Below, piece after piece: positions 1-62,334 of a stretch of DNA of 64,000 nucleotides (position 1 is its first letter; every line of letters begins with the position of its first letter). The stretch lies in the UHGV virus genome UHGV-1550212. One strand, written 5' to 3'. The notes under the pieces were generated by a model. It was not told where the DNA came from and did not search any database. It was given only the letters and a program-made list of their open reading frames with translations. Position numbers and translations under genes: made by a program. The DNA comes from a virus.

Positions 1-98
1 TTTCTTGTTTGTACAGCCATAGTATGAAATTGTTTGAAGTTTGTCTGTTATTTGTATTGCAGACAAGCTCGAACAATTTCATCATTCAAGTATGTCTG

Positions 99-506
99 CT
101 ATTTGTAGAAAGCGCGATTAATTAACACCCAACGAGTTGTGTTGCCTGCAATAAGAATTGCATATGACATTGCGCCAGTTGCATTTGCTGATACATCTGA
201 GTAGCCTGCTGCATAGTACAATGGCCCATTATTAAATGCAAATGTTGTTGTCGCATTGCAAACTGTTGCATTGCCTACTCGATTAATAACACATGATTCG
301 CCATATGTTAAGTTTGACAATGCGCATGTTATTGCTGACGATGTCGTTATATTATGCACTGTGTTTGCGACTGCATTAAATGACGCAGATTCAAGCGTCG
401 CATTCGCCATCAACGCACTATCAATGAGGTCGCCAAATTGTGCCGAGGTGGGTTTATCTCCGGTTTCAAAATACGTTTTGAGTACCGAACGTGTTTGAAC
501 TGCCAT
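99..506 (-). CDS. small tail-fibre-like protein (135 aa)
   Basis: ATG ORF. The N-terminal LKTYFETGDKPTSAQFGDLIDS motif resembles conserved phage tail-fibre N-termini (recognised from memory, not searched). It lies at the end of the fibre block. Confidence 0.6.
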   Translation of the reverse strand: MAVQTRSVLKTYFETGDKPTSAQFGDLIDSALMANATLESASFNAVANTVHNITTSSAITCALSNLTYGESCVINRVGNATVCNATTTFAFNNGPLYYAAGYSDVSANATGAMSYAILIAGNTTRWVLINRAFYK

Positions 507-904: not shown

Positions 905-1261
905 ATGCAAATCCCTCGTAACTGGGGGGGGGCACAACAAGCCCTCCAACAAAGAAAGCTGTTAAAGCAGTTCACCGTACATATTTATACTCGGTACACT
1001 ATACCAATTAGACTGACATTTCTTGATAGAGAATTGCCACAAGAAGTTGGTCCTATTAAAACAGTGACGCCAATGTTGTATGATAATAGTACAGCTATCA
1101 CAATTTACAAAGGCACGCAAGTGTTCTATGATTTGTACTATGATGAAGTTAAGTTTGCTACGCATATCATAGCAACACAAGGCAACACAAACTATGGTGA
1201 AATTGAATTTGACGCTGATGATATCAAAGCATCAGAATATGCAATATACATTGGTATTTGA
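905..1261 (+). CDS. hypothetical small protein (118 aa; alternative start 1073)
   Basis: Only plausible plus-strand ORF here. ATG 905 lies about 30 nt after the last promoter-like repeat copy, and the bidirectional terminator 1333-1364 follows. A G9 tract occupies codons 7-9. The 785-904 part of the tracked ORF is translated tandem repeat. Confidence 0.45.
   Translation: MQIPRNWGGAQQALQQRKLLKQFTVHIYTRYTIPIRLTFLDRELPQEVGPIKTVTPMLYDNSTAITIYKGTQVFYDLYYDEVKFATHIIATQGNTNYGEIEFDADDIKASEYAIYIGI
920..936. repeat. right arm of inverted repeat: AACT-G9-CACA
   Basis: The G9 homopolymer at 924-932 lies inside codons 7-9 of ORF 905-1261. Confidence 0.85.
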
Positions 1262-1332
1262 TAAGTAAATTTGTAAACATTTCAGACTATATTACACTTA
1301 GACTGTATCAATTAAGCGCGTCACAGTGCACA

Positions 1333-1364
1333 AAAAAGACTCAGCAATATTGCTGAGTCTTTTT
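1333..1364. terminator. bidirectional rho-independent terminator
   Basis: Perfect palindrome AAAAAGACTCAGCAAT|ATTGCTGAGTCTTTTT between convergent genes (stops at 1261 and 1381). Confidence 0.85.
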
Positions 1365-1380
1365 ATGCATTTGCAGTTCA

Positions 1381-2136
1381 TTACAGCATATTCCAGTTTG
1401 TCATGTCATACATGTTGAAGTTGAACGCTGATGTAATATGTTCAAGAGCAGTCAAGATGTCATTACCAACTACTGGGTCATTTGCAATAAGCAAAATACA
1501 GTCAGTGACAGACGTATCGACCATGTTGCCTGCTTGAAAATCATTGAGCATTAGCCATTCAGCAAAGCAGTTGTCATAGTACGCAGGCTTGCCTGCAAAC
1601 ACTTTATCATCTCCAAATGATTCAAATGGGTGCGACAATGTCGATGCAAGCAGTTGAATGTCTTCATCTGTGCAATGAGATTCAATTCCCTCAAGCACAA
1701 TTGCTACACGCCACTCATTTGTCTCTGAATCGCCTCTATGAATTTCGTGAATCCAGGGTAAGCATGCAAGTGTATCACCACATGTCAAATTGACATTATC
1801 AAGTGTCTCACCTTGACCTGCGTAGCAATATAAAGTGGAGCCAGTGCCATAACGTAGACAGTCATTTACACTGACATTATCAAGATACACTGAACAAATT
1901 GACAATGCACCTGCACCAAGCCTGTTTGCGGGAATTGTCAACTTATATGTTGGCACGCCATTTGGCTGCACTGTGATAGGTGAGCCTGCTAAGAATTCAC
2001 CAGTGTCAGCATCATAGCATTCGACTTCTTGCATAGTCGCATATGCAGCTTCAAGCAGTGAACCATCTGCTTTATTGATAGCGCCGCTGATAATAGTGTC
2101 ACGAAGAGCCCCCCGCGATTGACTGCTGGCGTTCAA
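1381..2136 (-). CDS. hypothetical virion-module protein (251 aa from TTG 2136; probable 5' extension to ATG 2158 across a G6 tract)
   Basis: Long ORF. The tracked start codon is TTG. An ATG at 2158 in another frame stops after 19 codons, just past the G6 tract (plus-strand C6 at 2109-2114). Confidence 0.7.
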   Translation of the reverse strand: MNASSQSRGALRDTIISGAINKADGSLLEAAYATMQEVECYDADTGEFLAGSPITVQPNGVPTYKLTIPANRLGAGALSICSVYLDNVSVNDCLRYGTGSTLYCYAGQGETLDNVNLTCGDTLACLPWIHEIHRGDSETNEWRVAIVLEGIESHCTDEDIQLLASTLSHPFESFGDDKVFAGKPAYYDNCFAEWLMLNDFQAGNMVDTSVTDCILLIANDPVVGNDILTALEHITSAFNFNMYDMTNWNML

Positions 2137-2227
2137 ACCAGAGTTGAGTAGTTTTCATAAGCGAAAAGACTTTTGTATGTGAAATTTATTGACATATTAT
2201 ATATCATGCTGCACTACGCACAAAAAG

Positions 2228-2256
2228 AAGAGCATCGGTTGATAACCGATGCTCTT
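2228..2256 (-). terminator. rho-independent terminator after the BACON genes
   Basis: 13-bp stem AAGAGCATCGGTT/AACCGATGCTCTT with a 3-nt loop, followed by a U-run in the minus sense. Confidence 0.8.
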
Positions 2257-2304
2257 TCAAGTTCTGCTGTAAACTGTTCAATAGTGTAATCTCGTTGTAC
2301 TCGA

Positions 2305-2919
2305 TTACGATACAGTCCACGGGCAGTTTGCAGTAACCGTAACCGTAACTGCAGGAGTACCGGCCTGAGGAATCTTGATTTCCTGCTTGTCGAGCACCAG
2401 CGTCGGGTCACCAGCAGCCTGAACGATTGCAATCTGAGCAGTCTGGGCACCGTTGGCAGTTACCAAAATCGATGTCGTACGCTCATCAATCGTCAAGTTG
2501 GCGGGAATGTCAAGCTCAATGCTGAACGCAAACTCAGCGCTAGCACCAGGGTCACCAGTGATTGCCACACCGTTGTTGGTTTCTACACCAGCAACCGCGT
2601 ACTTTTCAGGCAGTTCGATAACGAACTCGCCGCCCTCAACGACGCTGAACGTCAGCTTCAATGAGTTAGATACACCGGTTACGGTAAGAGTACCGCCAGC
2701 CTTAGGAGCTGACATCTCTGAACCGTTGTCAAATGACACGAATTCAGCCTTTGCAGTCTGCTGCACATTGTACGTCGAAGGCGTCGAAATACCGGCACCC
2801 TGAACGGTTACGACACCAGTACGTGCAATACGACCAGTGTGGGCGTCAGCAGAGTTGGAAATTGAACCATTACCCGAACCAGATGTCGGGCTAAGTTTCA
2901 ACCATGCGGGTTTAGCCAT
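2305..2919 (-). CDS. BACON-domain protein (204 aa)
   Basis: The N-terminus MAKPAWLKLSPTSGSGNGSISNSADAHTGRIARTGVVTVQ matches the BACON pattern (W-L-x-S-P, G-x-G-N, N-x-G-x-x-R-x-G). It is paralogous to the next two genes. Confidence 0.8.
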   Translation of the reverse strand: MAKPAWLKLSPTSGSGNGSISNSADAHTGRIARTGVVTVQGAGISTPSTYNVQQTAKAEFVSFDNGSEMSAPKAGGTLTVTGVSNSLKLTFSVVEGGEFVIELPEKYAVAGVETNNGVAITGDPGASAEFAFSIELDIPANLTIDERTTSILVTANGAQTAQIAIVQAAGDPTLVLDKQEIKIPQAGTPAVTVTVTANCPWTVS

Positions 2920-2975
2920 TGTTCAAAATTGTTATAAAGTGAGTGTATATGTGTACAAAATTCGATGATTGCTCA

Positions 2976-3575
2976 TCAAAGAATTTTCCAAGAAGCATTT
3001 GATGTCAAGTTCATTGTGATTGTTGTGCCGTCATCATCGACTGTCACAGACTCTGTGCTCAATACAAGAGTTGCTGCCGCAGCTGCTTGAGTAATACTAA
3101 CATTCAATGACTTGCCACCAGGTGTCGTCACTGTCAATACAAATGATTTCTGTTCAATTGTCAAATTTTGCGGTATTGTAACTTCAATTGACCAAGCAAA
3201 CTTTGCAATATATCCAGGGTCATTTGCAATTGCTGTGTCATTTGTTGCAGCGGCGCCATTTGCTGTGTACGCAGTCGGAATGCTAAGATTCGGATTTGTA
3301 GTTGCAAACTTAAGTTTTGCTGCGTTAGACTCACCAGAAACGACAATTTTTGTGGCAGCAGCAATCACATTATATGATGCTGTGCCTGACACAAATTCTG
3401 CAAGAGCAGCTTGGTTAATCGTCGTTTGCTTTGTAACTGTAGGTGTAGTCTTCGTTTGCACAGTCGCAATTGTGCTACGAATGCCTCTACCTGTATGAGC
3501 TCCTGCAGTAAATGCCAGGATATCATTGCCTTCACCAGACATTGGTGAACACTGCGCCCATATAGCTTTTGCCAT
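2976..3575 (-). CDS. BACON-domain protein (199 aa)
   Basis: The N-terminus MAKAIWAQCSPMSGEGNDILAFTAGAHTGRGIRSTIATVQ is BACON-like. It is a paralogue of 2305-2919. Confidence 0.8.
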   Translation of the reverse strand: MAKAIWAQCSPMSGEGNDILAFTAGAHTGRGIRSTIATVQTKTTPTVTKQTTINQAALAEFVSGTASYNVIAAATKIVVSGESNAAKLKFATTNPNLSIPTAYTANGAAATNDTAIANDPGYIAKFAWSIEVTIPQNLTIEQKSFVLTVTTPGGKSLNVSITQAAAAATLVLSTESVTVDDDGTTITMNLTSNASWKIL

Positions 3576-3646
3576 TGTTACTGTGCAATTTTTAATTGTT
3601 TGACATGATATTTATATGCATTGCTTAAGCAATGTTGAATTGACAT

Positions 3647-6600
3647 TTATCGAACAAGGAATGACGTACCAACAACCATATTCGGGATTGCCAAGCCATT
3701 GCCAGACTGGCTTACTGCAACTGTGCCACTTGTGTAACCTGACAATGCTGCAGTAATTGTTGCCGACCTGCTGTTATCTGAACCCCAGTTATTTGCAGCG
3801 GACAATGTCGAACCTCTGATTGTGAATGCGCCATTGTTCGATGAGTACGTTGGAGTAACCGCAGCATCTGATGTTGTAGACTGACCTGTCGTGTACTTTG
3901 TGACAGTTCGACCTGTCGTAGACAATGTTGCAGTGCCACCAGCAGCCCCAAAGCTTGTAACAGTTGAGCTGACAATCAGAGTCTTCGTAGTCGAAGTCAC
4001 ACTGTTGGCTTCCTGTGTAGCAGTGATTGCTTTTGAGCCAGTTTGACCATTCAACGCAACCGTCATATTGACTGTAGCGGTTCTTGCAGAACCAGCAGTT
4101 GTGCCACGATTTGCAGCAGTCAATGAACCGGTTGTACTACTGTTAAGCGTAAAGCCAGTAGTTGTAGCCATACTGTATGAAATTGTACCGCCAGATGTAA
4201 TAGTAGTTTTTGAACCACTTGTGTACGTTGCTGTCTGCGAGTATGCTGGCGTGCCTGTTGGAGTCTTTGTTGCACCTGCTGCAGCAAATGTTGCATATGA
4301 TGTTGCTGTAGTAACTGTGACTGCACTGTATGATACACTGTTAGTTGCTTGATAGACATCAAGTGCTTTTGTAGCAGTCTTAGACCCTTCACCAGTAGCA
4401 GTTGCAGTCAAAGTGCCAATCTTTGTACGAGCTTTAACTGTAGTGCCAAGCGATGATGCGCTGACTTTTGTGCTATACGCAATGCTAACTGAGCCTGCCC
4501 TTGTGCTGCCAGACGTATATGTAATTGTCTGTGATGCACTGATGCCAGACATTGATGCGACTTCACCACCGCCAGCAGGAATATCTGATACAGAACCACC
4601 AGAGATTGTTACTGCGCCATATGTCGTAATTGCATTTGCAGCTTGGTACACATCGACTGCTTTTGTTCCAGATTTGCCATTGACTGTTACAGTAACAGTA
4701 GATGTTGTAATCTTTGTGCGGGCTTTAGCAGTAGTGCCAAGTGAACTACCAGACACTGCGCCAGTAGACGTTGTTACACCAGTACCAGACCATGATTTGC
4801 TGCCGCCAGACGTAACTGTCTGTGTTGAGCCACTTGACCACGTAACTGATTGACTGAATGACACCGTAGGCGTAACTGAGCCGCCTTTTGCAGGAATATC
4901 ACCATAAGTCATCGAAACTGTTGGCATGCCATATGTAGCAGCATTAGCATTTTGAGATGCAGTAGCAGTCTTTGTTCCACTGATAGTCTTTGTGCCTGCT
5001 GCGTTGTATGATGCAGTTGGCGTCCATGTAGCCTTTACAGTCTTTGTGACTGTTGGCGATGTTGTTGCACCACTTGCAGTAGTGCCTTTTGATGATGCGG
5101 TTATAGCACCAGTAGATGCATTGAGTGCAGTGAACAATCCTGATGCGCCTGGCCAGCTATATGATGTTGTAGTTGACAATGAACCATACGTAGATGCTGG
5201 CGCAGTAGTTGAAGTACTGCCACTACTAAAGTGGTATGTTACTGTGTTTGCACCATTTGACGGTGTAGATGTTCCGCCACCTGCAGCAATTGCAGGATAT
5301 GACATCGAACCAACTGCAATATTGAGTGCAGTCACATAGTTGCCTGCCTGATAAATCGTTGCAGACTTGCTGGCAGATTTGCCATTCATTGTGACTTTAA
5401 CAGTCAGTGTACCTGCAGTAGTCTGGTTAGATATTGTAGTGCCCTTTGATTGCACAGTGACTGTCGATGTGTACTCAATTGTTCCGCCGCTTGTCAGTGT
5501 TTCTGTCGTCTTTTCACCAGTAGCATATGTCGTAGTTTTGACTTGCGAATAAGTTACTGTACCAGATTTTACAGAACCGCCGCTTGCTGCAATGATAGTT
5601 GCAGACGGTGTCAAGTTAACTGTGATATCGCTATATGTAACTGTGCCAGCAGATTGAGCTGCTTGATAAACATCTGCAGCTTTTGATGCAGACTTACCGT
5701 TGAGTGCTACTGTGACAGTTAATGTGCCAATCTTTGTTCGTGGCTTAACTGATGTGCCAAGTGATGATGCAGATATACCTGCTGCTGGGCTATATGAAAT
5801 TGTGCCACCAGTAGTAATGTTCTGAGTTGATGTTGATGTGTATGTAGCAGTCTGCGAATATGACACATTGCCACTCTTAATTGTACCACCAGTTGCAGGA
5901 ATATCTGCTACAGTGAAGCTTGAAATTGTAACTGCGCCATATGACACAGTGTTTGCAGCTTGCTTGACTGTGCAAGAACCAGTTTTTGTAACACCGCCCT
6001 CAGTGTATGAGCCAGAAATTGTAATGCTGCGTTCTGCGCCTACGACTGTTGTGCGATTTGCTGCAGTTACTGTAGTAGTCGACAATGTAAAGCCAGTTGC
6101 TGAACCGCTAAGTGTTGCAGATACTGCAGCAGATGACGTTGAGCCTGATGCATATGTGTATGACGCTGTTGAAGTGATTGTAGTTGAACCGCCACCAGCT
6201 GCCAATGTTGCAGCGCCAGGTGTCAATGTCAAGCCATTCAGCGTCTTTGAGTTTGCAGTTTGTGTTGCAGTAGCAGTTTTTGTAGCAGACTTGCCATTGA
6301 TTGCTACCGTAACTGTGACAGCATTTGAAGCATCAGTAGAGCCTACATATGATGTGCCCATTGACGTTACAGTCAATGCGCCACTTGTCGTATTCAATGT
6401 CCAGCGTGACTTAGCAGTCATTGCATAAGACAATGTAGCACCACTTGTCAATGTGCCACCTGAGCCAGCTACGCCATTCCAAGTCCAGACTTGTGAATAT
6501 GAAACAGTTGGGTTTGATGTACCACCAGCAGGAGCAATGTTTGAATATGAGAACGTTCCAATGACAGGCGTTTCATAGACTTTAGCGCCTGCAGCTTGGT

Positions 6601-7975
6601 TAAACGTGATGTCTTTTGATGCAGACTTACCATTTGCGGTGACTGTCAAGGTAACAACAAATCCATTACGTGCAGCAGTAGAATTGTTGTTTGTCACTGC
6701 GACATTCAAGCCAGATAAGCTATAGCCTGTTACAGCAGTTTTGACCGCAGCAGTCCATGTGCCACCTGATGTGTTGCTGTCAGTTGAACCGCTGCTGTAT
6801 GTCATTGACTGCGTAAATGTTGCAGATGCATTGGCTGCAACAGTTTGACCTGCTACTGCAAGAGCAACTGGTGTTGTCTTTGTAATGACTGGCGTGCCAT
6901 ATGTAATGCTGTTAGCAGCTTGTGTAATCGATACAGTAGCAGTTGCATTGCCATATGACGCTGTGCCACTAAATGACCGAGCATCACCGACAGTCTTGCC
7001 ACGATTTGCAGATGTTACAGAATTTGCAGATATCGTAAATCCTGTTGCAGTGCCAGTAATTGTAGGCTTGACATTTGTTTCAGTAGATGTAACAACACCA
7101 TTCCATGTTACAGTGTAAGTGCCTGTGATTGTTGATGTTCCACCTGCTGCAGTATGACTTGTTGAATATGCGTTCAGAGCAAGTTTGTATACGACTGAGC
7201 CTGCTGCTTGTGAACATTTAACAGTCTTCGATAAGTCATGACCACTTACAGTCAGTGTTGGTGTAACTGCTGCAGTTGATGCATTGTTCGGTGTATTGAC
7301 AGTGATTGTTACAGGGCCTGTGCCAGATGCTTTTGAGACTGACCAACCTGCAGGTACGCCTGAAATTGTCCATGCAAAGTCAGGGTTACAAGAAATTGCG
7401 AATGTTTTCGATTCACCCTTTGCAACAAATGACAGAGTTTCTGGTGATACTGCCAATGTTGCACTTGCACCAGCTTGATTTACAGTAAATGCTGCAGACT
7501 CGCCACCAGGCGTTGACAATGTAAAAGTGAACGCCTTTGCAGCGATTGCAGTATGTGCATCAATCTGCACTCGTACAATCACTTCAAATTCAGCATTGAC
7601 ACCAGGGTCATTGTCAAAGTTTGTGTTGAGCTCGTAGTTTTTGCCTGCAACAGTCACGCCAAGCACTGTGCCGCTTGCAGTACCACCAGTACTGCCAAGC
7701 ACAAGTTTTTGTGCATTTGTGACGCATTTCAATGTTGCAATAGTGCCACCATTTGACGCAATGTTTGTAGATGCAACTGTAGCTCGTATAGTTTCACCAG
7801 GAGACTCTTGCAATACTGCACAGTTTTCAGTTACTACTGGTGAACCTGTAGTTGTTTGCGCAGTAAAGCTGCCAGACCTGTTATTTCGACCAGTATGCAC
7901 AGATGCTTTGACAGACAACTGTGAGTTGCCTGTGCCAACATCAGGTGTAACTGTCAACCAAGTAGGCTTTGCCAT
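3647..7975 (-). CDS. giant BACON/Ig-like tandem-repeat surface protein (1442 aa)
   Basis: N-terminal BACON domain (MAKPTWLTVTPDVGTGNSQLSVKASVHTGRNNRSGSFTAQ), followed by more than 10 repeats of about 95 aa with the recurring pattern ...GGT..YSQ..TYTSGS...SLGT..K.RTKIGTLTVT...NGKSA.K...VYQA.N. Confidence 0.85.
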   Translation of the reverse strand: MAKPTWLTVTPDVGTGNSQLSVKASVHTGRNNRSGSFTAQTTTGSPVVTENCAVLQESPGETIRATVASTNIASNGGTIATLKCVTNAQKLVLGSTGGTASGTVLGVTVAGKNYELNTNFDNDPGVNAEFEVIVRVQIDAHTAIAAKAFTFTLSTPGGESAAFTVNQAGASATLAVSPETLSFVAKGESKTFAISCNPDFAWTISGVPAGWSVSKASGTGPVTITVNTPNNASTAAVTPTLTVSGHDLSKTVKCSQAAGSVVYKLALNAYSTSHTAAGGTSTITGTYTVTWNGVVTSTETNVKPTITGTATGFTISANSVTSANRGKTVGDARSFSGTASYGNATATVSITQAANSITYGTPVITKTTPVALAVAGQTVAANASATFTQSMTYSSGSTDSNTSGGTWTAAVKTAVTGYSLSGLNVAVTNNNSTAARNGFVVTLTVTANGKSASKDITFNQAAGAKVYETPVIGTFSYSNIAPAGGTSNPTVSYSQVWTWNGVAGSGGTLTSGATLSYAMTAKSRWTLNTTSGALTVTSMGTSYVGSTDASNAVTVTVAINGKSATKTATATQTANSKTLNGLTLTPGAATLAAGGGSTTITSTASYTYASGSTSSAAVSATLSGSATGFTLSTTTVTAANRTTVVGAERSITISGSYTEGGVTKTGSCTVKQAANTVSYGAVTISSFTVADIPATGGTIKSGNVSYSQTATYTSTSTQNITTGGTISYSPAAGISASSLGTSVKPRTKIGTLTVTVALNGKSASKAADVYQAAQSAGTVTYSDITVNLTPSATIIAASGGSVKSGTVTYSQVKTTTYATGEKTTETLTSGGTIEYTSTVTVQSKGTTISNQTTAGTLTVKVTMNGKSASKSATIYQAGNYVTALNIAVGSMSYPAIAAGGGTSTPSNGANTVTYHFSSGSTSTTAPASTYGSLSTTTSYSWPGASGLFTALNASTGAITASSKGTTASGATTSPTVTKTVKATWTPTASYNAAGTKTISGTKTATASQNANAATYGMPTVSMTYGDIPAKGGSVTPTVSFSQSVTWSSGSTQTVTSGGSKSWSGTGVTTSTGAVSGSSLGTTAKARTKITTSTVTVTVNGKSGTKAVDVYQAANAITTYGAVTISGGSVSDIPAGGGEVASMSGISASQTITYTSGSTRAGSVSIAYSTKVSASSLGTTVKARTKIGTLTATATGEGSKTATKALDVYQATNSVSYSAVTVTTATSYATFAAAGATKTPTGTPAYSQTATYTSGSKTTITSGGTISYSMATTTGFTLNSSTTGSLTAANRGTTAGSARTATVNMTVALNGQTGSKAITATQEANSVTSTTKTLIVSSTVTSFGAAGGTATLSTTGRTVTKYTTGQSTTSDAAVTPTYSSNNGAFTIRGSTLSAANNWGSDNSRSATITAALSGYTSGTVAVSQSGNGLAIPNMVVGTSFLVR

Positions 7976-13524: not shown

Positions 13525-15135
13525 TCAACATTCTACATACGAGCCATCAGTGTTTTCAACAAGCACTTTGATACTCAAGCTTACATCTGTGCCTTGTTGA
13601 CTTCTTATCAATGGCACAATGTCTTTTGCTTGCGGTGCAATATTGCCCATATTGTCAATGTGCTTGTCATTGCCAATGAACTGCACATCTACTGATTTGA
13701 TGACATCAAGCTCTTCAAGTTTTGCAATTGCAGCAGAACGACTAACGAATGTCGATGCATTTGACCAGGAGTCTTCTACAAACGCTTTTGCGGCATCAAG
13801 CAGTTGTTGTTTGACGTCTTCTATGTTTTGCAGTACTGCAGTCTTTTTGACAAGAATGAGCATTTGATAAAATTCAAGTTGCACAGTGTCAAATTGCACA
13901 TCAGTTAGCAGCACATAGTCACCAGTGTTTTCGATAGCATTGTTCAGATATTGTCTATCTGTAGAGTCAATCGTAAATTCTGCTATTGGCAATGACCAGT
14001 AGTCATACACTATTGAGCTCGCTTTGACATACTTGTCTGCAATGTTGGGCACCAGTACAACATGAATTGTCTGAGTCTCTGTATTTGACCAGACATCAAG
14101 TATCTTGTACTGACCAAAACGTGACATAAACGCCCTGATTGAATCTGCTGAGTGCAATACAAGCGCCCTGTTAATTGAACCTGCATGTGAACGTATTGAT
14201 TCGATGTCTTCACCATTGTAGCCGCCGACAATATCTGTCAGCTGTTCAATGACTAATACACCCTTTGGGCTTACAGCAGTAGTGTTTGCATCATACATGC
14301 CATTGACCCATTCAAATGTTGCGTCATTGTCAATCAAAATGTTTCCTGCATAGCCCTCACATGCAGTGTATTCTACATTGACAACTGCATTTTGTGCAGG
14401 AATTTGACCAGCAGTGCCATTGCCAAACACAATCTGTAGTTTGCCATCATATGACCAGCGTTCAATATACCCCTTGCTGTATCTGTCCATTTCATCAAAC
14501 CCTGCATAGCGAGTCCACAGCTCATTGCCAACTGTGACAGTCAATGAATCTTCAGATACAATCAAGTTGCGTTCTTCGATAGTGAATGTTGTCATTGACT
14601 CGCCATCAGAAATGTATTGCTGAGACTTGCGTTCACCTTGTCTGACTGCGAATTCATATCGTACACCCGTCAACTCATTGTTGATGTTGAGTTGCGCAAA
14701 GTCTTGATGCATATCGATGTAGTACATCAATGAGTTCTCTTTGCATTTAATTGCTGCATATCGTTTAATGAACACAGTTGGACCAAGCTCTTTGACTGCA
14801 TCATATGAAAAACTCAATGCAATTTTGCCTGATGCTGCAATGCCACCAACACATTTGTAACATGCAAGCTGTGCAAGTCCTCGTACAGATGCGGTCTGTT
14901 CTGCAGTAAGCAAGTTGTTTTCTTTTGTGCCTACTACAATTTGCGTAAAGATGAGTGACGCAAGTTCTCTGAAACTCTGAACAAGAATTCCAAAAATTGT
15001 GTACTTACCATATTGTTTCTTTGTAGAGTTCAGCAAATTCTGCAGCCAAGTATCTATAGACTGTGACACACCTGAATATGACATTTGCATTTTCTGCATC
15101 CACGTCATATTGTCACGAGTGTTATTTGTGCGCAT
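13525..15135 (-). CDS. baseplate J / gp6-like wedge protein
   Basis: GGYNGEDIESIRSHAG resembles the GG..E(S/T).E..R signature of baseplate-J proteins, and the size and context fit. Start ATG 15135 was chosen just after the ATACATATACAAAC motif. The tracked N-terminal extension to 15237 is translated 30-bp tandem repeat. Confidence 0.65.
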   Translation of the reverse strand: MRTNNTRDNMTWMQKMQMSYSGVSQSIDTWLQNLLNSTKKQYGKYTIFGILVQSFRELASLIFTQIVVGTKENNLLTAEQTASVRGLAQLACYKCVGGIAASGKIALSFSYDAVKELGPTVFIKRYAAIKCKENSLMYYIDMHQDFAQLNINNELTGVRYEFAVRQGERKSQQYISDGESMTTFTIEERNLIVSEDSLTVTVGNELWTRYAGFDEMDRYSKGYIERWSYDGKLQIVFGNGTAGQIPAQNAVVNVEYTACEGYAGNILIDNDATFEWVNGMYDANTTAVSPKGVLVIEQLTDIVGGYNGEDIESIRSHAGSINRALVLHSADSIRAFMSRFGQYKILDVWSNTETQTIHVVLVPNIADKYVKASSIVYDYWSLPIAEFTIDSTDRQYLNNAIENTGDYVLLTDVQFDTVQLEFYQMLILVKKTAVLQNIEDVKQQLLDAAKAFVEDSWSNASTFVSRSAAIAKLEELDVIKSVDVQFIGNDKHIDNMGNIAPQAKDIVPLIRSQQGTDVSLSIKVLVENTDGSYVEC

Positions 15136-15160
15136 ATCAGTTAATTTGTTTGTATATGTA

Positions 15161-15235
15161 TTCGAATGTGCACACATGAGAATAGGTCTCTTCGAATGTG
15201 CACATATGAGAATAAGTCTCTTCGAATATGTACAC
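15161..15235 (-). repeat. 2.4 copies of a 30-bp tandem repeat (TTCGAATGTGCACA(C/T)ATGAGAATA(G/A)GTCTC)
   Basis: Copies lie at 15161-15190 and 15191-15220, with a partial copy from 15221. Each holds the near-palindrome ATGTGCACAT. The array sits between terminator 15241-15266 and the J-like gene. Confidence 0.85.
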
Positions 15236-15240
15236 AAAAA

Positions 15241-22956: not shown

Positions 22957-25900
22957 TTATCGTACGATGAATGGCTTGTTAGAGTCTTCAATAATCATTG
23001 AGCCGATGCCATGCAGCTCTTGAGTAACCTCGACAGATACATCTTGTGCAGTGTTGTATGAGCACTTGAATGCTGCAACTCGACTAAATGCGTCAATGTC
23101 TGAATAACTGAGTTCATCAACTTGTATTGAGATTTCACCAATTGCTGGCGCAGTCTTTGATGGTGTAATTGTGATGTCATGCAGCCAGCCCGGATTGCCA
23201 ACAATGACTGCAGTCAATGATTCACCATCAATTGGATTGACAACTTCATAATTGAAGCTCAAAGTCTTTGATGAGTCATCAGTTGTTGCTGACGCAGGCG
23301 TAATGTTGATTGTTGTTACGCCTTTCGCAGCCTGAACAATTTGTGCAGTAACATCTTGAGCATTGATGTGAGAGAACTTAACTGAGCAGCTACGTTGTTC
23401 TGTCGTTAAGTTGCGGTCACATTCAATAGTCAAGTAGCCTTTGCCTGTGTTATCATCATATTCGAAATTTGTGTCAGTGAATACGCCAGCTCCATTAAGA
23501 ACTTCATATGACAACTGCTGACCTGCAATTGGATTGCCAACAGTGACCTCAAAGACTGCTTGAGTATCTGTTGACTTCAATTGAGCAATAATCGGCTCAA
23601 CAGTTATTGTCGACACGCCTTGAGCTGCTTGTGTAATGTTGACTGTTACGTTGTCAGCAGTCATATATGACAGTCTCAAGTATAAGTTACGAGTAGCTGT
23701 TGCAGTGTTGATGTCAAGCGCAAATTGTATTGTGCCAGCTGACATATTTACTACAGGTTCGCCAACAAAGCCAGAGCCCTCTGCAGCAACTGTCAGTGTT
23801 TCGTCTTCAATAGGATTGGTGATGCTAAAGTTAACTGTAAACGAACCACCATTAGCTGCTGCGTTGATTGTCAGCGGTTCAGCATTGATGACTGTAGCTT
23901 CTTTAGCAGCCTGAGCAAGCGATACTGCTACATTGTCTGCAGTTGGATATTGTAGTACAATGTTTGCTGTACGAGTGCTTGTTTGCAATGTCTTGTCATA
24001 ATCAAATGTAATCTTGCCATCAGCAACTTGAACATTGTGAATCCAGCTTTTTGTTGCATATGCAGTGACTGCAGCACCAGCATAGCCATTACGAATTTGA
24101 TATGTAATTTCAGATGAACCGCCAGCAGCATTAAGTGACATAGAACTTGTGACAATGATTTCAGGCCTTGTTGATGCACTTGTGCTGTATTGAACTACAG
24201 ATGCAATTACACGAGGCTCAAATATGACAGCATTTGCAGAGCCGCCAAATGTCGGTGTTGCAATCACATAGATTGGCCAAACTCCACTTGATGCGACATT
24301 GCGTAAGATTGCTCGATAGTGCAGTTCATTGCATGCATCTTGCAATTCACTCCATGTTTTTGCAGTGTCAATTGTTGTCAAGCATGCAGGCAACACCGCA
24401 CATGTTGATGGCTTATCGGCGTCAATAGGTGTTGCATTGCCACTTGCTATTGGTTTGTAGCTCAAGTCGACTTTGACTGATGCATAACCATTGCCATACA
24501 CAATGAATGGCACAGTGATATCAAGCAAAATATCGACAGTTGCAGGCATGTTCAGATATGCTGGCAGCGGTACAAGCGTTTGCATTGCAGTAGCACCTGG
24601 CACATTGTCATCGAATGATTCAACATACACAGGTGGCGTCAAATCATCTTTGTGAGCATATTCTGCATGAGTGTGGTCTGAATGTGACACTGTGCTTGCA
24701 TAACCAGACCCAGCAAAGTCTTTATTGAATGCAGACTTCTTTGCTTCTTCAGTCAATCTGCCAGAGCCATCATATGCCAGCACAGTATTTGATGCGCCGA
24801 CACCTGCTGCAAGATGATTTGAGCCATCAATGAAGACATGTTTATATTGACGTTCAAACAAATGAGCATCAAAATTGTCAAATATCGAATTGAACAGCTT
24901 TTTGACTGCGGATGCTGTAGGCAGATGCTTGTTTGCATTTGCGCCATCAATGATGATACTTGCCCAATTGTCTGAGCTCTTGAAGATGCCAAGAAGCATA
25001 TCGATGACTTTGCCAGTAGCGTCTGTGCCAAGAACACTTGCACCAGGCAGTTTCATCAATTGTAAGTCGACTGTTGCAGCAAGTTTAAGCAACTGCTTTG
25101 TCAATGTCAGAATGTCTGTGACAACTCCAGCATCTGACAATGCTGCAATGCGATATGACTGATTGATGAGTTGCGCAAACTTATATGCACGAATGAATGA
25201 CTCTCGCTTTGCTTCTGCATCCAAGCCTTTTGCCAAGAACAACTCATCATATTTCAGATTTGCATATGACAATATGTCAAGCTCATTGACTGCAGATGTA
25301 AAATGATTGCGAAGTCTAATGCCCTCATATGATTGCCACAATGCAGCCAAATCAGCAAATGACTTGACATGTGAATCATCTGATGCAAAGCCAAACACAA
25401 GACCGCTGTTAAAGTCGTTTTGCAACAGCATATGTGGAAAAGCATCAATGCCTGGCAACTGATTCTTTTTGTCTGCATCAAGACGATTCAGTGTTCGTTG
25501 TGTGAGGTCGTAATAGTAATATGGATTGCCCAATATCTGCACAACTGGCTTTGCTGCTTTGTTGTTTGCATTGCCAAGACCATCAATTTGTGTATCACTC
25601 GGTGCAAGCAGAATAACTGAGCTGTCAACGTTATTGTATCGAGGCACACTTTCAAGCCCTATTGACAATGCGCCTGTATGCTTGTTTGAGTAGCTGTTGT
25701 CGATTTCTGCACCAGGCTGGCCATCTGCTGCAATGTTGAACATTGCTGCGTATGACTTGATTGTACCGCCGTACTTTGTTTTGATGAGCTCTTCAATGAT
25801 TTGCGTAATGATGACATTCAAGTTATCATTGTCACTTGTCAGCAATTGCAAGCCCGTAAATTGCCACCATTGCGCATCATCTGATGACGCGTCATACCAG

Positions 25901-26295
25901 TACACTTTGCCATCTGGTGCAATGACCCAGTCTGCGTATGACAAAGCATCTGTATGCAAAATGTTGCAAAACGCGGGTTTGTTTGCATCTGAACAGAACT
26001 CATTGAATGCTGCAGCATCGACAACTTTTGCAGTACCTGCGTCATTTTGCGTAGCTGACCAATCACTGCCAAATGTTGCATTGATATCAGCAAGTGATGC
26101 ATACATAATGCGGTTGCCTCGATAGCCATCGAAGCCAGGCAAACCGCGGTCACCAGTTTCACCAATACGACCCTTAAATAGGGGGGAATTCACAATTCTA
26201 CTGAAATTGTAATTCAAAATTTCACACAACTCTGCATAAGATGTGACTTGAAGTTTTTTCAGTACAATTGGCTGTGCTTTATGTTCTGCAGACAT
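22957..26295 (-). CDS. tail fibre protein with collagen-like motif and C-terminal BACON-like repeats (1112 aa)
   Basis: Contains the G-x-Y run GRIGETGDRGLPGFDGYRGN near the N-terminus and an HSDHTHAEYAH motif. Four C-terminal repeats of about 90 aa end ...V(T/S)V.(I/V)TQ(A/E)A.G. Confidence 0.85.
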   Translation of the reverse strand: MSAEHKAQPIVLKKLQVTSYAELCEILNYNFSRIVNSPLFKGRIGETGDRGLPGFDGYRGNRIMYASLADINATFGSDWSATQNDAGTAKVVDAAAFNEFCSDANKPAFCNILHTDALSYADWVIAPDGKVYWYDASSDDAQWWQFTGLQLLTSDNDNLNVIITQIIEELIKTKYGGTIKSYAAMFNIAADGQPGAEIDNSYSNKHTGALSIGLESVPRYNNVDSSVILLAPSDTQIDGLGNANNKAAKPVVQILGNPYYYYDLTQRTLNRLDADKKNQLPGIDAFPHMLLQNDFNSGLVFGFASDDSHVKSFADLAALWQSYEGIRLRNHFTSAVNELDILSYANLKYDELFLAKGLDAEAKRESFIRAYKFAQLINQSYRIAALSDAGVVTDILTLTKQLLKLAATVDLQLMKLPGASVLGTDATGKVIDMLLGIFKSSDNWASIIIDGANANKHLPTASAVKKLFNSIFDNFDAHLFERQYKHVFIDGSNHLAAGVGASNTVLAYDGSGRLTEEAKKSAFNKDFAGSGYASTVSHSDHTHAEYAHKDDLTPPVYVESFDDNVPGATAMQTLVPLPAYLNMPATVDILLDITVPFIVYGNGYASVKVDLSYKPIASGNATPIDADKPSTCAVLPACLTTIDTAKTWSELQDACNELHYRAILRNVASSGVWPIYVIATPTFGGSANAVIFEPRVIASVVQYSTSASTRPEIIVTSSMSLNAAGGSSEITYQIRNGYAGAAVTAYATKSWIHNVQVADGKITFDYDKTLQTSTRTANIVLQYPTADNVAVSLAQAAKEATVINAEPLTINAAANGGSFTVNFSITNPIEDETLTVAAEGSGFVGEPVVNMSAGTIQFALDINTATATRNLYLRLSYMTADNVTVNITQAAQGVSTITVEPIIAQLKSTDTQAVFEVTVGNPIAGQQLSYEVLNGAGVFTDTNFEYDDNTGKGYLTIECDRNLTTEQRSCSVKFSHINAQDVTAQIVQAAKGVTTINITPASATTDDSSKTLSFNYEVVNPIDGESLTAVIVGNPGWLHDITITPSKTAPAIGEISIQVDELSYSDIDAFSRVAAFKCSYNTAQDVSVEVTQELHGIGSMIIEDSNKPFIVR

Positions 26296-60716: not shown

Positions 60717-60737
60717 TTTGTATATGTACATAAAAGA
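60717..60737 (-). promoter_or_regulatory. late-type promoter-like motif (CTTTTATGTACATATACAAAC)
   Basis: It lies between terminator 60736-60765 and ATG 60701. Confidence 0.4.
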
Positions 60738-61160
60738 GCAAGTTCTCAATGTGGAGAACTTGCTCAGCTGACCTGTTGCCAGGTGAAAGCGTGGTGCAGC
60801 ACCTTGTGCTGCAATGGCTATGCTGCCATCGCCATAACGGGCTGAGCATTGCCCAGCATCATTACACGACCAGCTGCATTAAGCGTACGCTTTGCTTTGT
60901 TGAAAAATTTGCCAGTTATCTGGTATCTGCACATCTATTCAAGCGACCTACTATGCAATCAAATGCCTGTCGAGCCCAATGTTTGAGCAGTTGTTTGTCA
61001 GATGCTCAGCTGACTGCAGTCTTTCTGAGTGTATCAAGTTCAGCGATTCTGCATCTTTGCTAAATGGCAATAGTTCAGGTGGACTCGCCGAGAATCGAAC
61101 TCGGGTCTTACATAGCGCATCCTTGACTTGGTCCTGTAAACAGGGTTGTCAACATGCATT
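60732..61160 (-). ncRNA. ssrA: candidate circularly permuted (two-piece) tmRNA-like gene: acceptor piece about 61160-61078, spacer 61077-60978, coding piece 60977 to about 60736
   Basis: Hand fold. The T-arm CCGAG-UUCGAUU-CUCGG is followed by the 3' acceptor strand CGAGUCC-A-CC (61104-61078). The 5' acceptor strand GGGCUCG (60977-60971) gives 7 bp with G3.U70 and A73. The P2a-like pairing is UUGCAUAG (60958-60951) with CUAUGUAA (61115-61108). An AUG-less frame ends ...GNAQPVMAMAA-UAG (stop at 60818-60820) inside hairpin 60811-60832. The terminator is at 60736-60765. Confidence 0.5.
60736..60765 (-). terminator. rho-independent terminator that ends the tRNA/tmRNA-like transcription unit
   Basis: Perfect 12-bp stem GAGCAAGTTCTC/GAGAACTTGCTC with a 6-nt loop, followed by UUUUAU. 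Confidence 0.8.
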
Positions 61161-61231
61161 GCAATACGACAGGACTCGAACCTGCGACCTCGGATTGGAC
61201 GTCCGCGCTCTTACCGCTGAGCTACGTATTC
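61161..61231 (-). tRNA. atypical tRNA, Gly(UCC)-like
   Basis: Hand-folded 71-nt cloverleaf with D-arm GCUC/GAGC and T-arm GCAGG-UUCGAGU-CCUGU. The anticodon loop is CGUCCAA, which puts G at position 33. There is a G1.G72 mismatch and no clear nucleotide 26. Confidence 0.5.
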
Positions 61232-61321
61232 TTATCAATTGACTGCACTGCAATGCAATCAATCGTGCCAATGATATTTGACGCATAATTGCAGTTATGC
61301 GTAACAATTCAAATGTCATTG

Positions 61322-61394
61322 AGCCAACTGCAGGAGTCGAACCTGTAACCTGCTGATTACAAATCAGCTGCTCTGCCAATTGAGCTAAGTTGGC
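61322..61394 (-). tRNA. tRNA-Thr(UGU)
   Basis: Acceptor GCCAACU/AGUUGGC, anticodon arm GCUGA-UUUGUAA-UCAGC, T-loop UUCGACU. Confidence 0.9.
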
Positions 61395-61396
61395 AT

Positions 61397-61475
61397 AAAG
61401 TCGTTGGGCCATTGCAACCCAAACCTATCATCTTTGTCTAACCAAAGATGCAAGTGTTCTCTTACACCACGACTT
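61397..61475 (-). tRNA. non-canonical tRNA-like gene (identity undetermined)
   Basis: Perfect 7-bp acceptor AAGUCGU/ACGACUU. A single linker nucleotide precedes the D-arm GUGU-AAGAGA-ACAC, which lacks GG. The central stem is 8 bp, CAUCUUUG/CAAAGAUG, with a 6-nt loop GUUAGA. The T-arm is UGGGU-UGCAAUG-GCCCA, lacking U-psi-C. It sits 1-2 nt from canonical tRNAs on both sides. Confidence 0.4.
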
Positions 61476-61476
61476 G

Positions 61477-61548
61477 TAGCCGAACTTGGAGTCGAACCAA
61501 GCTTTCGAGAATGAAAATCTCGCGTCCTAACCGATAGACGAAACGGCC
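61477..61548 (-). tRNA. tRNA-Glu(UUC)
   Basis: Anticodon arm CGAGA-UUUUCAU-UCUCG and T-arm CUUGG-UUCGACU-CCAAG. The acceptor has two U.U mismatches, at 6:67 and 7:66. Confidence 0.75.
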
Positions 61549-61731
61549 AAGAGCAGTTCAAGTCTGCAGCATTGAACTGCGGAAACAATGCCTGTACGGG
61601 CAGCAAATTGTGCAGATACAGCGACATTGCAAAATCACACCGAACCAAGTTTGTGGCTCTTCTGTCTCATAAAAACAAGTAATCATTACACTTGGCACCA
61701 ATGATTCTGATGTAAAAATCGGTGTGTTATG

Positions 61732-61816
61732 CGGAGAGTAAGGGATTCGAACCCCTGGTACGTTGCCGTACAGTGGTTTTCAAGACCACCGCCATCGACC
61801 GCTCGGCCAACTCTCC
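61732..61816 (-). tRNA. tRNA-Ser(UGA)
   Basis: Class II tRNA. Acceptor GGAGAGU/ACUCUCC, anticodon loop CUUGAAA, 16-nt variable arm, T-loop UUCGAAU. Confidence 0.9.
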
Positions 61817-62010
61817 ATAAAACATTGCATAAGCATTCTTATCTCTTGATGAGACCAAGTAGCTAATTTGGCAAGTTTGTTATATCTATCGTGACTGTTG
61901 CAGTTTGTTTGTCACTCAATACACAAAACTTTCGAACATTCATTGACAGCACTGCAATATCGCTTTTTAAGCTTAGCCATCAATGTATTTATGCAATGTA
62001 TAACAATTCG

Positions 62011-62092
62011 TAGCCAAACCGGGACTTGAACCCAGACTCCTAATGGAACAACATTTTGAGTGTTGCGTGTCTACCAATTCCACCATTTGGCC
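62011..62092 (-). tRNA. tRNA-Leu(CAA)
   Basis: Class II tRNA. Anticodon arm CAACA-CUCAAAA-UGUUG, 13-nt variable arm, T-arm CUGGG-UUCAAGU-CCCGG. Confidence 0.9.
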
Positions 62093-62182
62093 ATTTACAA
62101 ATGCAATCTATTTCACAACTGTTTGCATTTGCATTGTTTAACACTAAAAATATGATTCATCTAATCAAAAACCAGAGAATTG

Positions 62183-62256
62183 TAGGGTAGACAGGACTCA
62201 AACCTGCGACCACGTGGTCCCAAACCACGCATTCTAATCAACTGAACTACTACCCT
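62183..62256 (-). tRNA. tRNA-Pro(UGG)
   Basis: Acceptor AGGGUAG/CUACCCU and anticodon arm CGUGG-UUUGGGA-CCACG. The T-loop UUUGAGU is slightly atypical. Confidence 0.85.
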
Positions 62257-62262
62257 AAGTAG

Positions 62263-62334
62263 TTGAACCGTCTGGACTCGAACCAGAAATGGCTGAACCA
62301 AAATCAGCTGTGTTACCGATTACACCACGATTCA
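62263..62334 (-). tRNA. tRNA-Gln(UUG)
   Basis: U1-A72 acceptor UGAAUCG/CGGUUCA, anticodon arm GCUGA-UUUUGGU-UCAGC, T-loop UUCGAGU. Confidence 0.9.

Follow-up and report, generated by a model that had tools for sequence, protein, structure and literature searches.

A polyguanine tract behind a conserved start codon as a probable phase-variable switch in an accessory gene of a large human-gut phage

The subject of this analysis is a minus-strand gene near the left end of a 64,000-nt stretch of the virus genome UHGV-1550212 (hereafter the window), in which a conserved ATG and the body of the gene stand on either side of a run of guanines. As delimited by gene callers, this flagged gene is a 251-amino-acid (aa) open reading frame (ORF) that starts at TTG 2136 and ends at 1381, which is also how an earlier note on this DNA, made by a model from the letters alone, had read it; the same note drew attention to the ATG at 2158, which lies in another frame. 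Positions are those of the window, and minus-strand features are read from the higher to the lower coordinate. A tract length that joins the frame of the ATG to that of the body is called on, and any other length off. The features of the gene and its surroundings are as follows.

2228..2256, minus strand: intrinsic-terminator hairpin (13-bp stem and T run), found in a terminator scan, which ends the transcript of the upstream BACON gene
2159..2205, minus strand: conserved upstream part of the leader cassette, …ATATAATATGTCAATAAATTTCACATACAAAAGTCTTTTCGCTT, presumed promoter and 5' untranslated region
2115..2158, minus strand: leader coding segment MKTTQLWFERQQSI plus the first two bases of an Ala codon, the predicted true 5' end of the gene
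ATG 2158-2156 to TGA 2101-2099, minus strand: 19-codon ORF MKTTQLWFERQQSIAGGSS, from direct reading of the sequence
2134..2136, minus strand: TTG within the W-F-E codons of the leader, taken by gene callers as the first codon of the 251-aa ORF
2109..2114, minus strand: polyG tract, G6 here (off; C6 on the plus strand), a Gly linker in the fused protein
2099..2101, minus strand: TGA that closes the 19-codon product of ATG 2158 in the G6 state
1381..2109, minus strand: gene body, 242 codons (ALRDTIISG…) plus stop, an ORFan under purifying selection
1332..1360, minus strand: hairpin and T run past the stop codon, AGACTCAGCA-ATAT-TGCTGAGTCT-TTTTTT, from direct reading

Read on the minus strand, ATG 2158 does open a frame other than that of the body, and this frame stops just past the G6 tract, which itself lies 44 nt downstream of the ATG. 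When the tract was varied in silico from G4 to G12, a long ORF (258-260 aa) ran from ATG 2158 at G5, G8 and G11 only, which bears out the earlier proposal that removing one G or adding two would fuse this ATG to the main ORF; in the off states the product of the ATG ends after 19 codons (G6) or 56 codons (G7). The TTG at 2136 is in frame with the body at G6 only. Stop-codon reassignment was considered and rejected, as a TAA follows 9 codons past the TGA at 2101-2099.

The upstream terminator mentioned in the earlier note is present as the 13-bp-stem hairpin at 2256-2228, and the hairpin at 1332..1360, although it has no entry in the output of the terminator scan, is likely the terminator of the gene itself; because a terminator stands upstream and a hairpin with a T run follows the stop codon, the flagged gene looks like a separate transcription unit. 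The element CACATACAAAAG that the note had pointed out upstream of the ATG is likewise there and is conserved in other copies of the cassette, the same ~47 nt standing before other leader copies; a sigma-70 promoter scan reported nothing at this element. The G tract is also able to pair with a conserved CUCUUCGUG just downstream, giving a small RNA or single-stranded-DNA hairpin (2095-2117, minus strand) that is not significantly better than those of shuffled sequences (z = -1.42).

Runs of this kind are scarce in this DNA. Across the 64-kb window we observed 4 G/C runs of at least 6 nt, compared with 0.48 expected from 50 first-order Markov simulations:

616-625: C10
924-932: G9
2109-2114: C6
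26181-26186: G6

Three of these are packed into 1.5 kb, and each follows an ATG by a few codons; the arrangement of three tracts at three adjacent 5' ends had been noticed earlier, and the other two of these tracts also vary in length among relatives (see below). The remaining run, at 26181-26186, sits ~110 nt inside the 5' end of a 1112-aa minus-strand gene (22957-26295).

To follow the tract of the flagged gene across related genomes we used a set of loci that is non-redundant, but in which several loci overlap and many are re-assemblies of one clone. The tract lengths found are listed here.

G6: window, L014-L019, L023, L028, L030
G7 (the commonest length): L001, L007-L013, L021, L024-L027, L029
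G8: L006 only

These lengths occur in genomes with zero or almost no other substitutions, as expected if the gene were switched by tract length, one of the options raised in the earlier note. Locus L029, an independent ENA assembly from a sample of another cohort, matches the window without a single mismatch over 10,506 bp, the alignment having two 1-nt gaps; it has G7 against the window's G6 at the flagged tract and G10 against G9 at 924-932, and no other tract difference was found. L030, with 4 mismatches to the window, has G6 at the flagged tract and G10 at 924-932. In a second clone, represented by 13 assemblies (L007-L019, with L007 as the reference), most assemblies show 0 mismatches over 3.4-11 kb (L011 has 2, L013 has 1 and L019 has 10), and, longer gaps in L011 and L013 excepted, they differ by 1-nt indels only, which match length changes at four polyG/C tracts. 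At least six tract haplotypes are thereby found on a background nearly free of single-nucleotide polymorphisms, and three further runs of that DNA (C5, C7 and an interrupted G6TGG) are invariant. The assemblies of this clone come from ENA study PRJEB14847, in which a few faecal specimens were re-extracted and re-sequenced by different protocols (Costea et al. 2017), and we infer that the tract haplotypes coexist in one or few donors. The tract is hypervariable in nature: recurrent, locus-specific length changes on a nearly substitution-free background fit hypermutability, and base-calling error does not fit them.

The in-frame state that the anatomy predicts occurs naturally. The 90%-identity protein cluster that contains the flagged protein has members of 251 aa (G6, TTG start), 217 aa (G7, Met43 start) and 259 aa; the protein P0004 is identical to the window protein and has L as its first residue. 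The 259-aa member, P0016 from the G8 locus L006, is the fused protein MKTTQLWFERQQSIAGGALRD… / MKTTQLWFERQQSIAGGALRDT… / MKTTQLWFERQQSIAGGALRDTIISG…, which is to say the fusion predicted in the earlier note plus one glycine. A second leader-bearing gene in L006 is likewise at G8 and in frame.

Which of the competing frames is coding can be read from a diverged copy of the leader in related genomes (leader v2), ATGAAAACTCCACAATTTTGGTTTGAGCGTCAACAAGGGCTAGCG-G7, encoding MKTPQFWFERQQGLAGG. Relative to the leader of the window, v2 carries four consecutive synonymous third-position changes (GAA CGC CAG CAG versus GAG CGT CAA CAA) as well as conservative replacements (L/F, I/L), and the DNA upstream of it is unrelated to that of the window; another leader copy has an in-frame GCG insertion. 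Because of these synonymous and conservative changes and the in-frame insertion, we conclude that the ATG frame has been kept as a peptide. Together with the natural G8 allele, the comparison indicates that ATG 2158 is the only conserved start and, as judged from the sequences, the true start of the gene. Reading from the TTG, another option raised at the outset, fares poorly: the TTG ORF exists in the G6 state only, and the TTG frame of leader v2 holds a stop codon (TAG).

Downstream of the tract, the 34 codons up to Met43 contain 6 synonymous and 4 non-synonymous variable codons in the frame of the body, compared with 1/9 and 2/8 in the other frames, and because this segment is coding in the body frame, the protein must start upstream of Met43. 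Among six strains the body has a ratio of non-synonymous to synonymous substitution rates (dN/dS) of 0.09-0.42 and an intact ORF, with no stop or other indel. The G6 state produces the 251-aa TTG ORF, and the G7 state the 217-aa ORF, as by-products. We also considered, and set aside, a signal peptide or lipoprotein at the N-terminus of the G7-frame products, as those products are not conserved.

The leader is not confined to the flagged gene. A 175.5-kb IMG/VR contig has the same ~70-110-nt block, consisting of a promoter-like stretch, an ATG, ~15 codons, a G tract and GCTCTTCGTG, at the 5' end of four different bodies:

Body 1: orthologue of the flagged gene, G7
Body 2: 232 aa (MRIYVRDNADN…), G7
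Body 3: 173 aa, with leader v2, G7 (in frame it would need G6 or G9)
Body 4: ~105 kb away, interrupted tract GGGTGGG

In locus L007 the cassette forms a repeat of ~110 bp (5829-5939 versus 11896-11785), and over the related genomes it precedes at least four other, different gene bodies. The distant copy (L002 4001-4751; IMG/VR contig ~35.5 kb), located ~105 kb from the variable island in which the flagged gene lies, has its different 230-aa body out of frame behind the GGGTGGG tract. Since the upstream sequence and leader of this copy recur inside the island in the L007 strain, the cassette has moved between loci together with its gene. A paralogue of the flagged gene with its leader at 7529 (L007 6722-7529, minus strand) lies in pieces, namely the leader plus 107 aa, 65 aa and 164 aa; it is 31% identical to P0017, which closely matches its 164-aa ORF, and, in addition to a G6/7/8 tract of its own, it has a second break of the frame.

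A protein search with two leaders concatenated returned no cluster representative sharing three words, and we take it from this that in-frame leader-bearing proteins are never cluster representatives. The leader DNA pattern itself was found on one IMG/VR contig (four copies) and on four short contigs in a metagenome collection, and in none of 185,579 representative bacterial genomes (GTDB); given this lack of matches among the GTDB genomes, it is not a prophage of a sequenced species that carries the leader.

A contingency locus is expected to carry its repeat inside or just after the start of a coding region, to vary in length among otherwise identical genomes, to occur naturally in full-length and truncated states, and to affect a gene that is under selection and is not a decaying pseudogene. 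The flagged tract has this position; its length differs between L029 and the window and within L007-L019; the G8 state of L006 stands beside G6 and G7 elsewhere; and the dN/dS values, the intact ORF and the coding-type substitutions are those of a selected gene. The most probable explanation, in our view, is that the flagged gene is a slipped-strand contingency (phase-variable) locus that is on at 3n+2 guanines and is off in the window. The gene would begin at ATG 2158, and its first ~16 codons (MKTTQLWFERQQSIAG) would be joined to the body through the polyG read as glycines. Slipped-strand mispairing during replication of the phage DNA would add or remove a G, such that 3n+2 lengths (G5, G8, G11) would give the full protein of ~258-260 aa and G6 or G7 early termination. 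The gene would be one of several of this kind, each with its own tract, in a small variable island beside baseplate and BACON-domain genes, and a phage population would then be a mix of on and off combinations. This account builds on direct observations: the anatomy of the gene, tract lengths that vary naturally between clonal genomes, an allele that is in frame, and constraint on leader and body as coding sequence. Slippage would be the cause of the length changes, which would be reversible, and the off states would yield no functional protein. The products may be virion or adsorption proteins, in which case the switching could serve as bet-hedging against variable host surfaces.

Several observations weigh against this account. 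The in-frame state is rare, with one G8 in roughly 12 distinct strains or clones for the flagged gene and ~3 of ~18 states on over all leader genes; with a balanced switch, populations would not be expected to sit mostly at G6 and G7, both off, and a dispensable gene could show the same pattern. Lengths of G6-G8 are at the short end for hypermutable tracts, the G7 tract of leader v2 is invariant in the same clone, and some copies have interrupted, out-of-frame tracts (GGGTGGG, GGGGGGTGG) that would be hard to switch. In addition, heterogeneity within populations is deduced from consensus assemblies, many of them from the one study PRJEB14847.

Because off states predominate, the most serious rival is neutral decay, in which the gene is dispensable cargo with the G run as a mutational hotspot, or in which the products from the TTG or from Met43 are the functional ones, and no adaptive switching takes place. 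The out-of-frame majority of alleles, the interrupted and apparently locked-off tracts, the further frameshift that the L007 paralogue (leader at 7529) seems to bear, and the strain-to-strain differences in the gene content of the island are all what decay would leave behind. It does not account, however, for a 242-codon body kept free of stops and other indels through six diverged strains at the dN/dS given above, nor for a leader peptide preserved through synonymous change; the region before Met43 is constrained as well, and a start at Met43 would leave that conservation unexplained. Three adjacent genes of one architecture, in a genome background almost devoid of G/C runs, are likewise not what one would expect of decay, which we therefore regard as unlikely.

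Recoding, the alternative that the earlier note had raised as a +1 frameshift, would let some full-length protein be made at any tract length, either by ribosomal frameshifting on the G run (-1 on G_GGG_GGG at G7, +1 on GGG-GGC at G6) or by RNA-polymerase slippage, and would make G7 the normal allele. G7 is in fact the commonest length, the body is under purifying selection even though most alleles are out of frame, and, reasoning from the sequence, both Gly-tRNAs at G7 could re-pair perfectly after a -1 slip and give the G8 protein. The shift that would be needed, however, differs among near-identical genomes (+1 at G6, -1 at G7, none at G8), and leader v2 would need yet another register; the GGGTGGG copy lacks any slippery site, and G6TGG variants also occur. 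The downstream 89-96 nt differ between paralogues and fold no better than shuffled sequences (z = +0.20, -0.23, -0.55), and the zero-frame extensions are not conserved, so that neither a conserved offset with a slippery site nor a conserved downstream RNA structure, the marks of a programmed frameshift, is found. A heptamer of G is not known to be one of the efficient -1 sites that are well characterised. As the main explanation recoding is quite improbable; it may be a minor contributor, since a -1 slip on G7 gives the G8 protein. An error of sequencing or assembly, with a real tract of G5 or G8 everywhere, draws on the known weakness of homopolymers and on the use of consensus assemblies only. 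Yet G6 recurs at 12 and G7 at 14 of the non-redundant loci, whose sources are several studies and assemblers (JGI/IMG, ENA, Logan); in the same contigs the nearby C5, C7 and G6TGG runs do not vary, and Illumina consensus errors at 6-8-nt runs are rare. A base-call error, which had been listed among the options, is untenable as a general explanation and effectively excluded, and we give it next to no credence.

The two genes beside the flagged gene follow the same plan, with their tracts close behind their start codons:

905..1261, plus strand: gene with a second leader type, MQIPRNWGG followed by AQQALQ…, G9 at 924-932, in frame (on), 118 aa
525..644, minus strand: 39-codon ORF MTFKLNWGGGHISG…, G10 at 616-625, upstream of the 135-aa gene 506-99

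The second leader type precedes different bodies in different strains, and its tract at 924-932 is off (G10 or G11) in L006, L007-type loci, L029 and L030. The tract at 616-625 is 7, 8, 9 or 10 nt long in relatives. The 135-aa gene (99-506, minus strand) belongs to a family of 120-145-aa paralogues with the N-terminus MAVQTRSVLKTYFETGDKPT(S/A)xQFGDLIDS, the C-terminus NRA(F/L/Y)Y and variable middles, four copies of which are present in both orientations in L007 8676-10535 and another at the left edge of the window (1-20, minus strand); the family has no Pfam or PHROG match. The divergent intergenic region at 711-875, between ATG 905 on the plus strand and ATG 644 on the minus strand, is taken up by tandem repeats (34 bp x 3.6 and 28 bp x 2.3) and aligns to the near-identical L030 with extra gaps and overlap, suggestive of a change in copy number.

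Two inverted ~110-bp leader cassettes, located in L001 at 4001 (plus strand) and 7042 (minus strand), bracket a variable island that measures 3-6 kb depending on the strain and differs in gene content between strains. L021, a contig of 3.5 kb from another strain, has the flagged gene's body attached to the flank opposite, on the gene-3 side, which ordinarily borders the other leader gene (L021 958-1147 versus L007 11785-11977). The one junction seen is of the kind expected after inversion or exchange between the inverted cassettes and suggests that such an event may have occurred. In L026, Pfam identified no recombinase in two island ORFs or in the eight ORFs that lie up to ~4.5 kb from the right flank; the left flank of the island consists of structural genes.

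These observations allow a broader but doubtful reading, in which the island as a whole would be a combinatorial contingency system. Unrelated small proteins would share a portable cassette made of a promoter-like region, a peptide of ~16-22 aa (MKTTQLWFERQQSIAG-G(n)-ALRDT) and a polyG switch; the peptide would dock or target those bodies that are on to one virion site, every burst would contain particles that differ in their accessory or adsorption proteins, and homology between cassettes would invert the island and swap bodies. The suggestion that bodies are swapped by way of the cassette is drawn from the copy ~105 kb away in the IMG/VR genome and the L021 recombinant.

The wider gene content of the window suggests that it comes from a large tailed phage. 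It encodes a baseplate wedge homologue (phrog_219) at 13525-15237 together with head-closure-like and tape-measure-like proteins, a sigma factor and an NAD-dependent ligase, and BACON domains are present in the genes just upstream of the flagged gene; contigs of 174.6-181 kb from human-gut metagenomes carry identical or near-identical proteins. At 60727-62334 lies a cluster of seven tRNA genes (Gly, Thr, Glu, Ser, Leu, Pro, Gln), and beside them ARAGORN makes a call resembling a transfer-messenger RNA, which has an unusually long tag peptide of 31 residues and may be spurious.

The proteins themselves have few relatives. A blastn search in distant mode with positions 1200-3700 gave no match among 50,697 phage records, and the flagged protein and the other leader-bearing bodies matched nothing in Pfam or PHROGs apart from one sub-threshold, CorA-like match of the L002 body, which we disregarded. 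HMMER returned 3 hits for the body among 1.84 billion representatives, all from the same phage group or unannotated. The AlphaFold (AF2) model is poor, with a pLDDT (predicted local distance difference test) score of 54, and a Foldseek search of BFVD with this pLDDT-54 model gave template-modelling (TM) scores below 0.3 and no credible structural neighbour. The position of the gene after baseplate and BACON genes suggests a role at the virion surface or in adsorption, and a shared N-terminal peptide would suit the docking of alternative proteins to one site. As its sequence has no hydrophobic core, the leader is not a signal peptide. Its beginning, MKTTQLWFE, may resemble the capsid-targeting sequence of T4, MKTYQEFIAE; we do not rely on this likeness.

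The closest parallel in mechanism is with Campylobacter phages of the genus Fletchervirus, whose switched genes are reportedly receptor-binding-protein genes. Hypermutable polyG tracts have been described in these phages (Sorensen et al. 2021, Cell Rep 35:109214), and the likeness comprises a lytic myovirus-type phage, G runs in several genes per genome, phenotypically mixed progeny, and the proposed purpose of coping with variation of the host surface. There is no sequence relationship, neither a DNA match in the 50,697 phage records nor a PHROG or Pfam match, and the likeness is one of mechanism only. In contrast to Fletchervirus, the tracts considered here are shorter (6-10) and lie in a conserved, portable leader cassette common to unrelated bodies, BACON-domain genes adjoin the tract gene, and any receptor-binding role is putative, suggested by the position of the gene.

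Contingency loci in T2/T4 and other phages, where repeats of at least 6 nt inside phage genes give reversible ±1 frameshifts at an elevated rate and are read as bet-hedging, offer a second comparison (Gomez, Barrick & Waters 2025, bioRxiv 10.1101/2025.10.21.683753). Those loci, however, are mostly A runs scattered in ordinary genes (e.g., agt), with the wild type in frame and the mutants null, whereas here several cassette genes have the tract at one fixed place, just past the start codon, and are mostly off.

Among bacteria, the opa genes of Neisseria carry CTCTT repeats in the region of the signal peptide, and the polyG genes of Campylobacter and Haemophilus form phase-variable families. Such families resemble the present genes in having a slippage-prone repeat within a conserved 5' coding leader, variable bodies and independent switching of each paralogue; they differ in that the genes here belong to a phage and their leader is not a signal peptide. 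T4-type phages have mobile regulatory cassettes, which, like the invertible tail-fibre segments described for Mu Gin and P1 Cin (van de Putte 1980), resemble the island in that alternative accessory or fibre genes have short repeated cassettes at their 5' ends, with inverted copies flanking the island here. Unlike the Gin and Cin segments, the island has no recombinase within ~4.5 kb on one side, the frame is switched by tract length and not by inversion, and the repeats are ~110 bp long and include a promoter-like region. A portable leader-plus-tract cassette on unrelated genes is the unusual feature relative to these known systems.

Phase variation through slippage at homopolymers is familiar from bacteria; the phages for which experiments have so far demonstrated it are those of Campylobacter and, recently, the T-even phages, and in the literature that we searched we found no report of polyG switching in human-gut phages. 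Here, in a widespread gut phage of ~175 kb, its signature is visible in public metagenomes, where clonal genomes are told apart solely by polyG tracts at the 5' ends of several adjacent accessory genes. One practical consequence is that gene callers annotate the flagged gene as 217, 251 or 259 aa depending on the state of the tract, and usually miss its true N-terminus. If the products act at the cell surface, the system would parallel, on the phage side, the phase-variable capsules of gut Bacteroidales, and would help to explain the long-term coexistence of phage and host.

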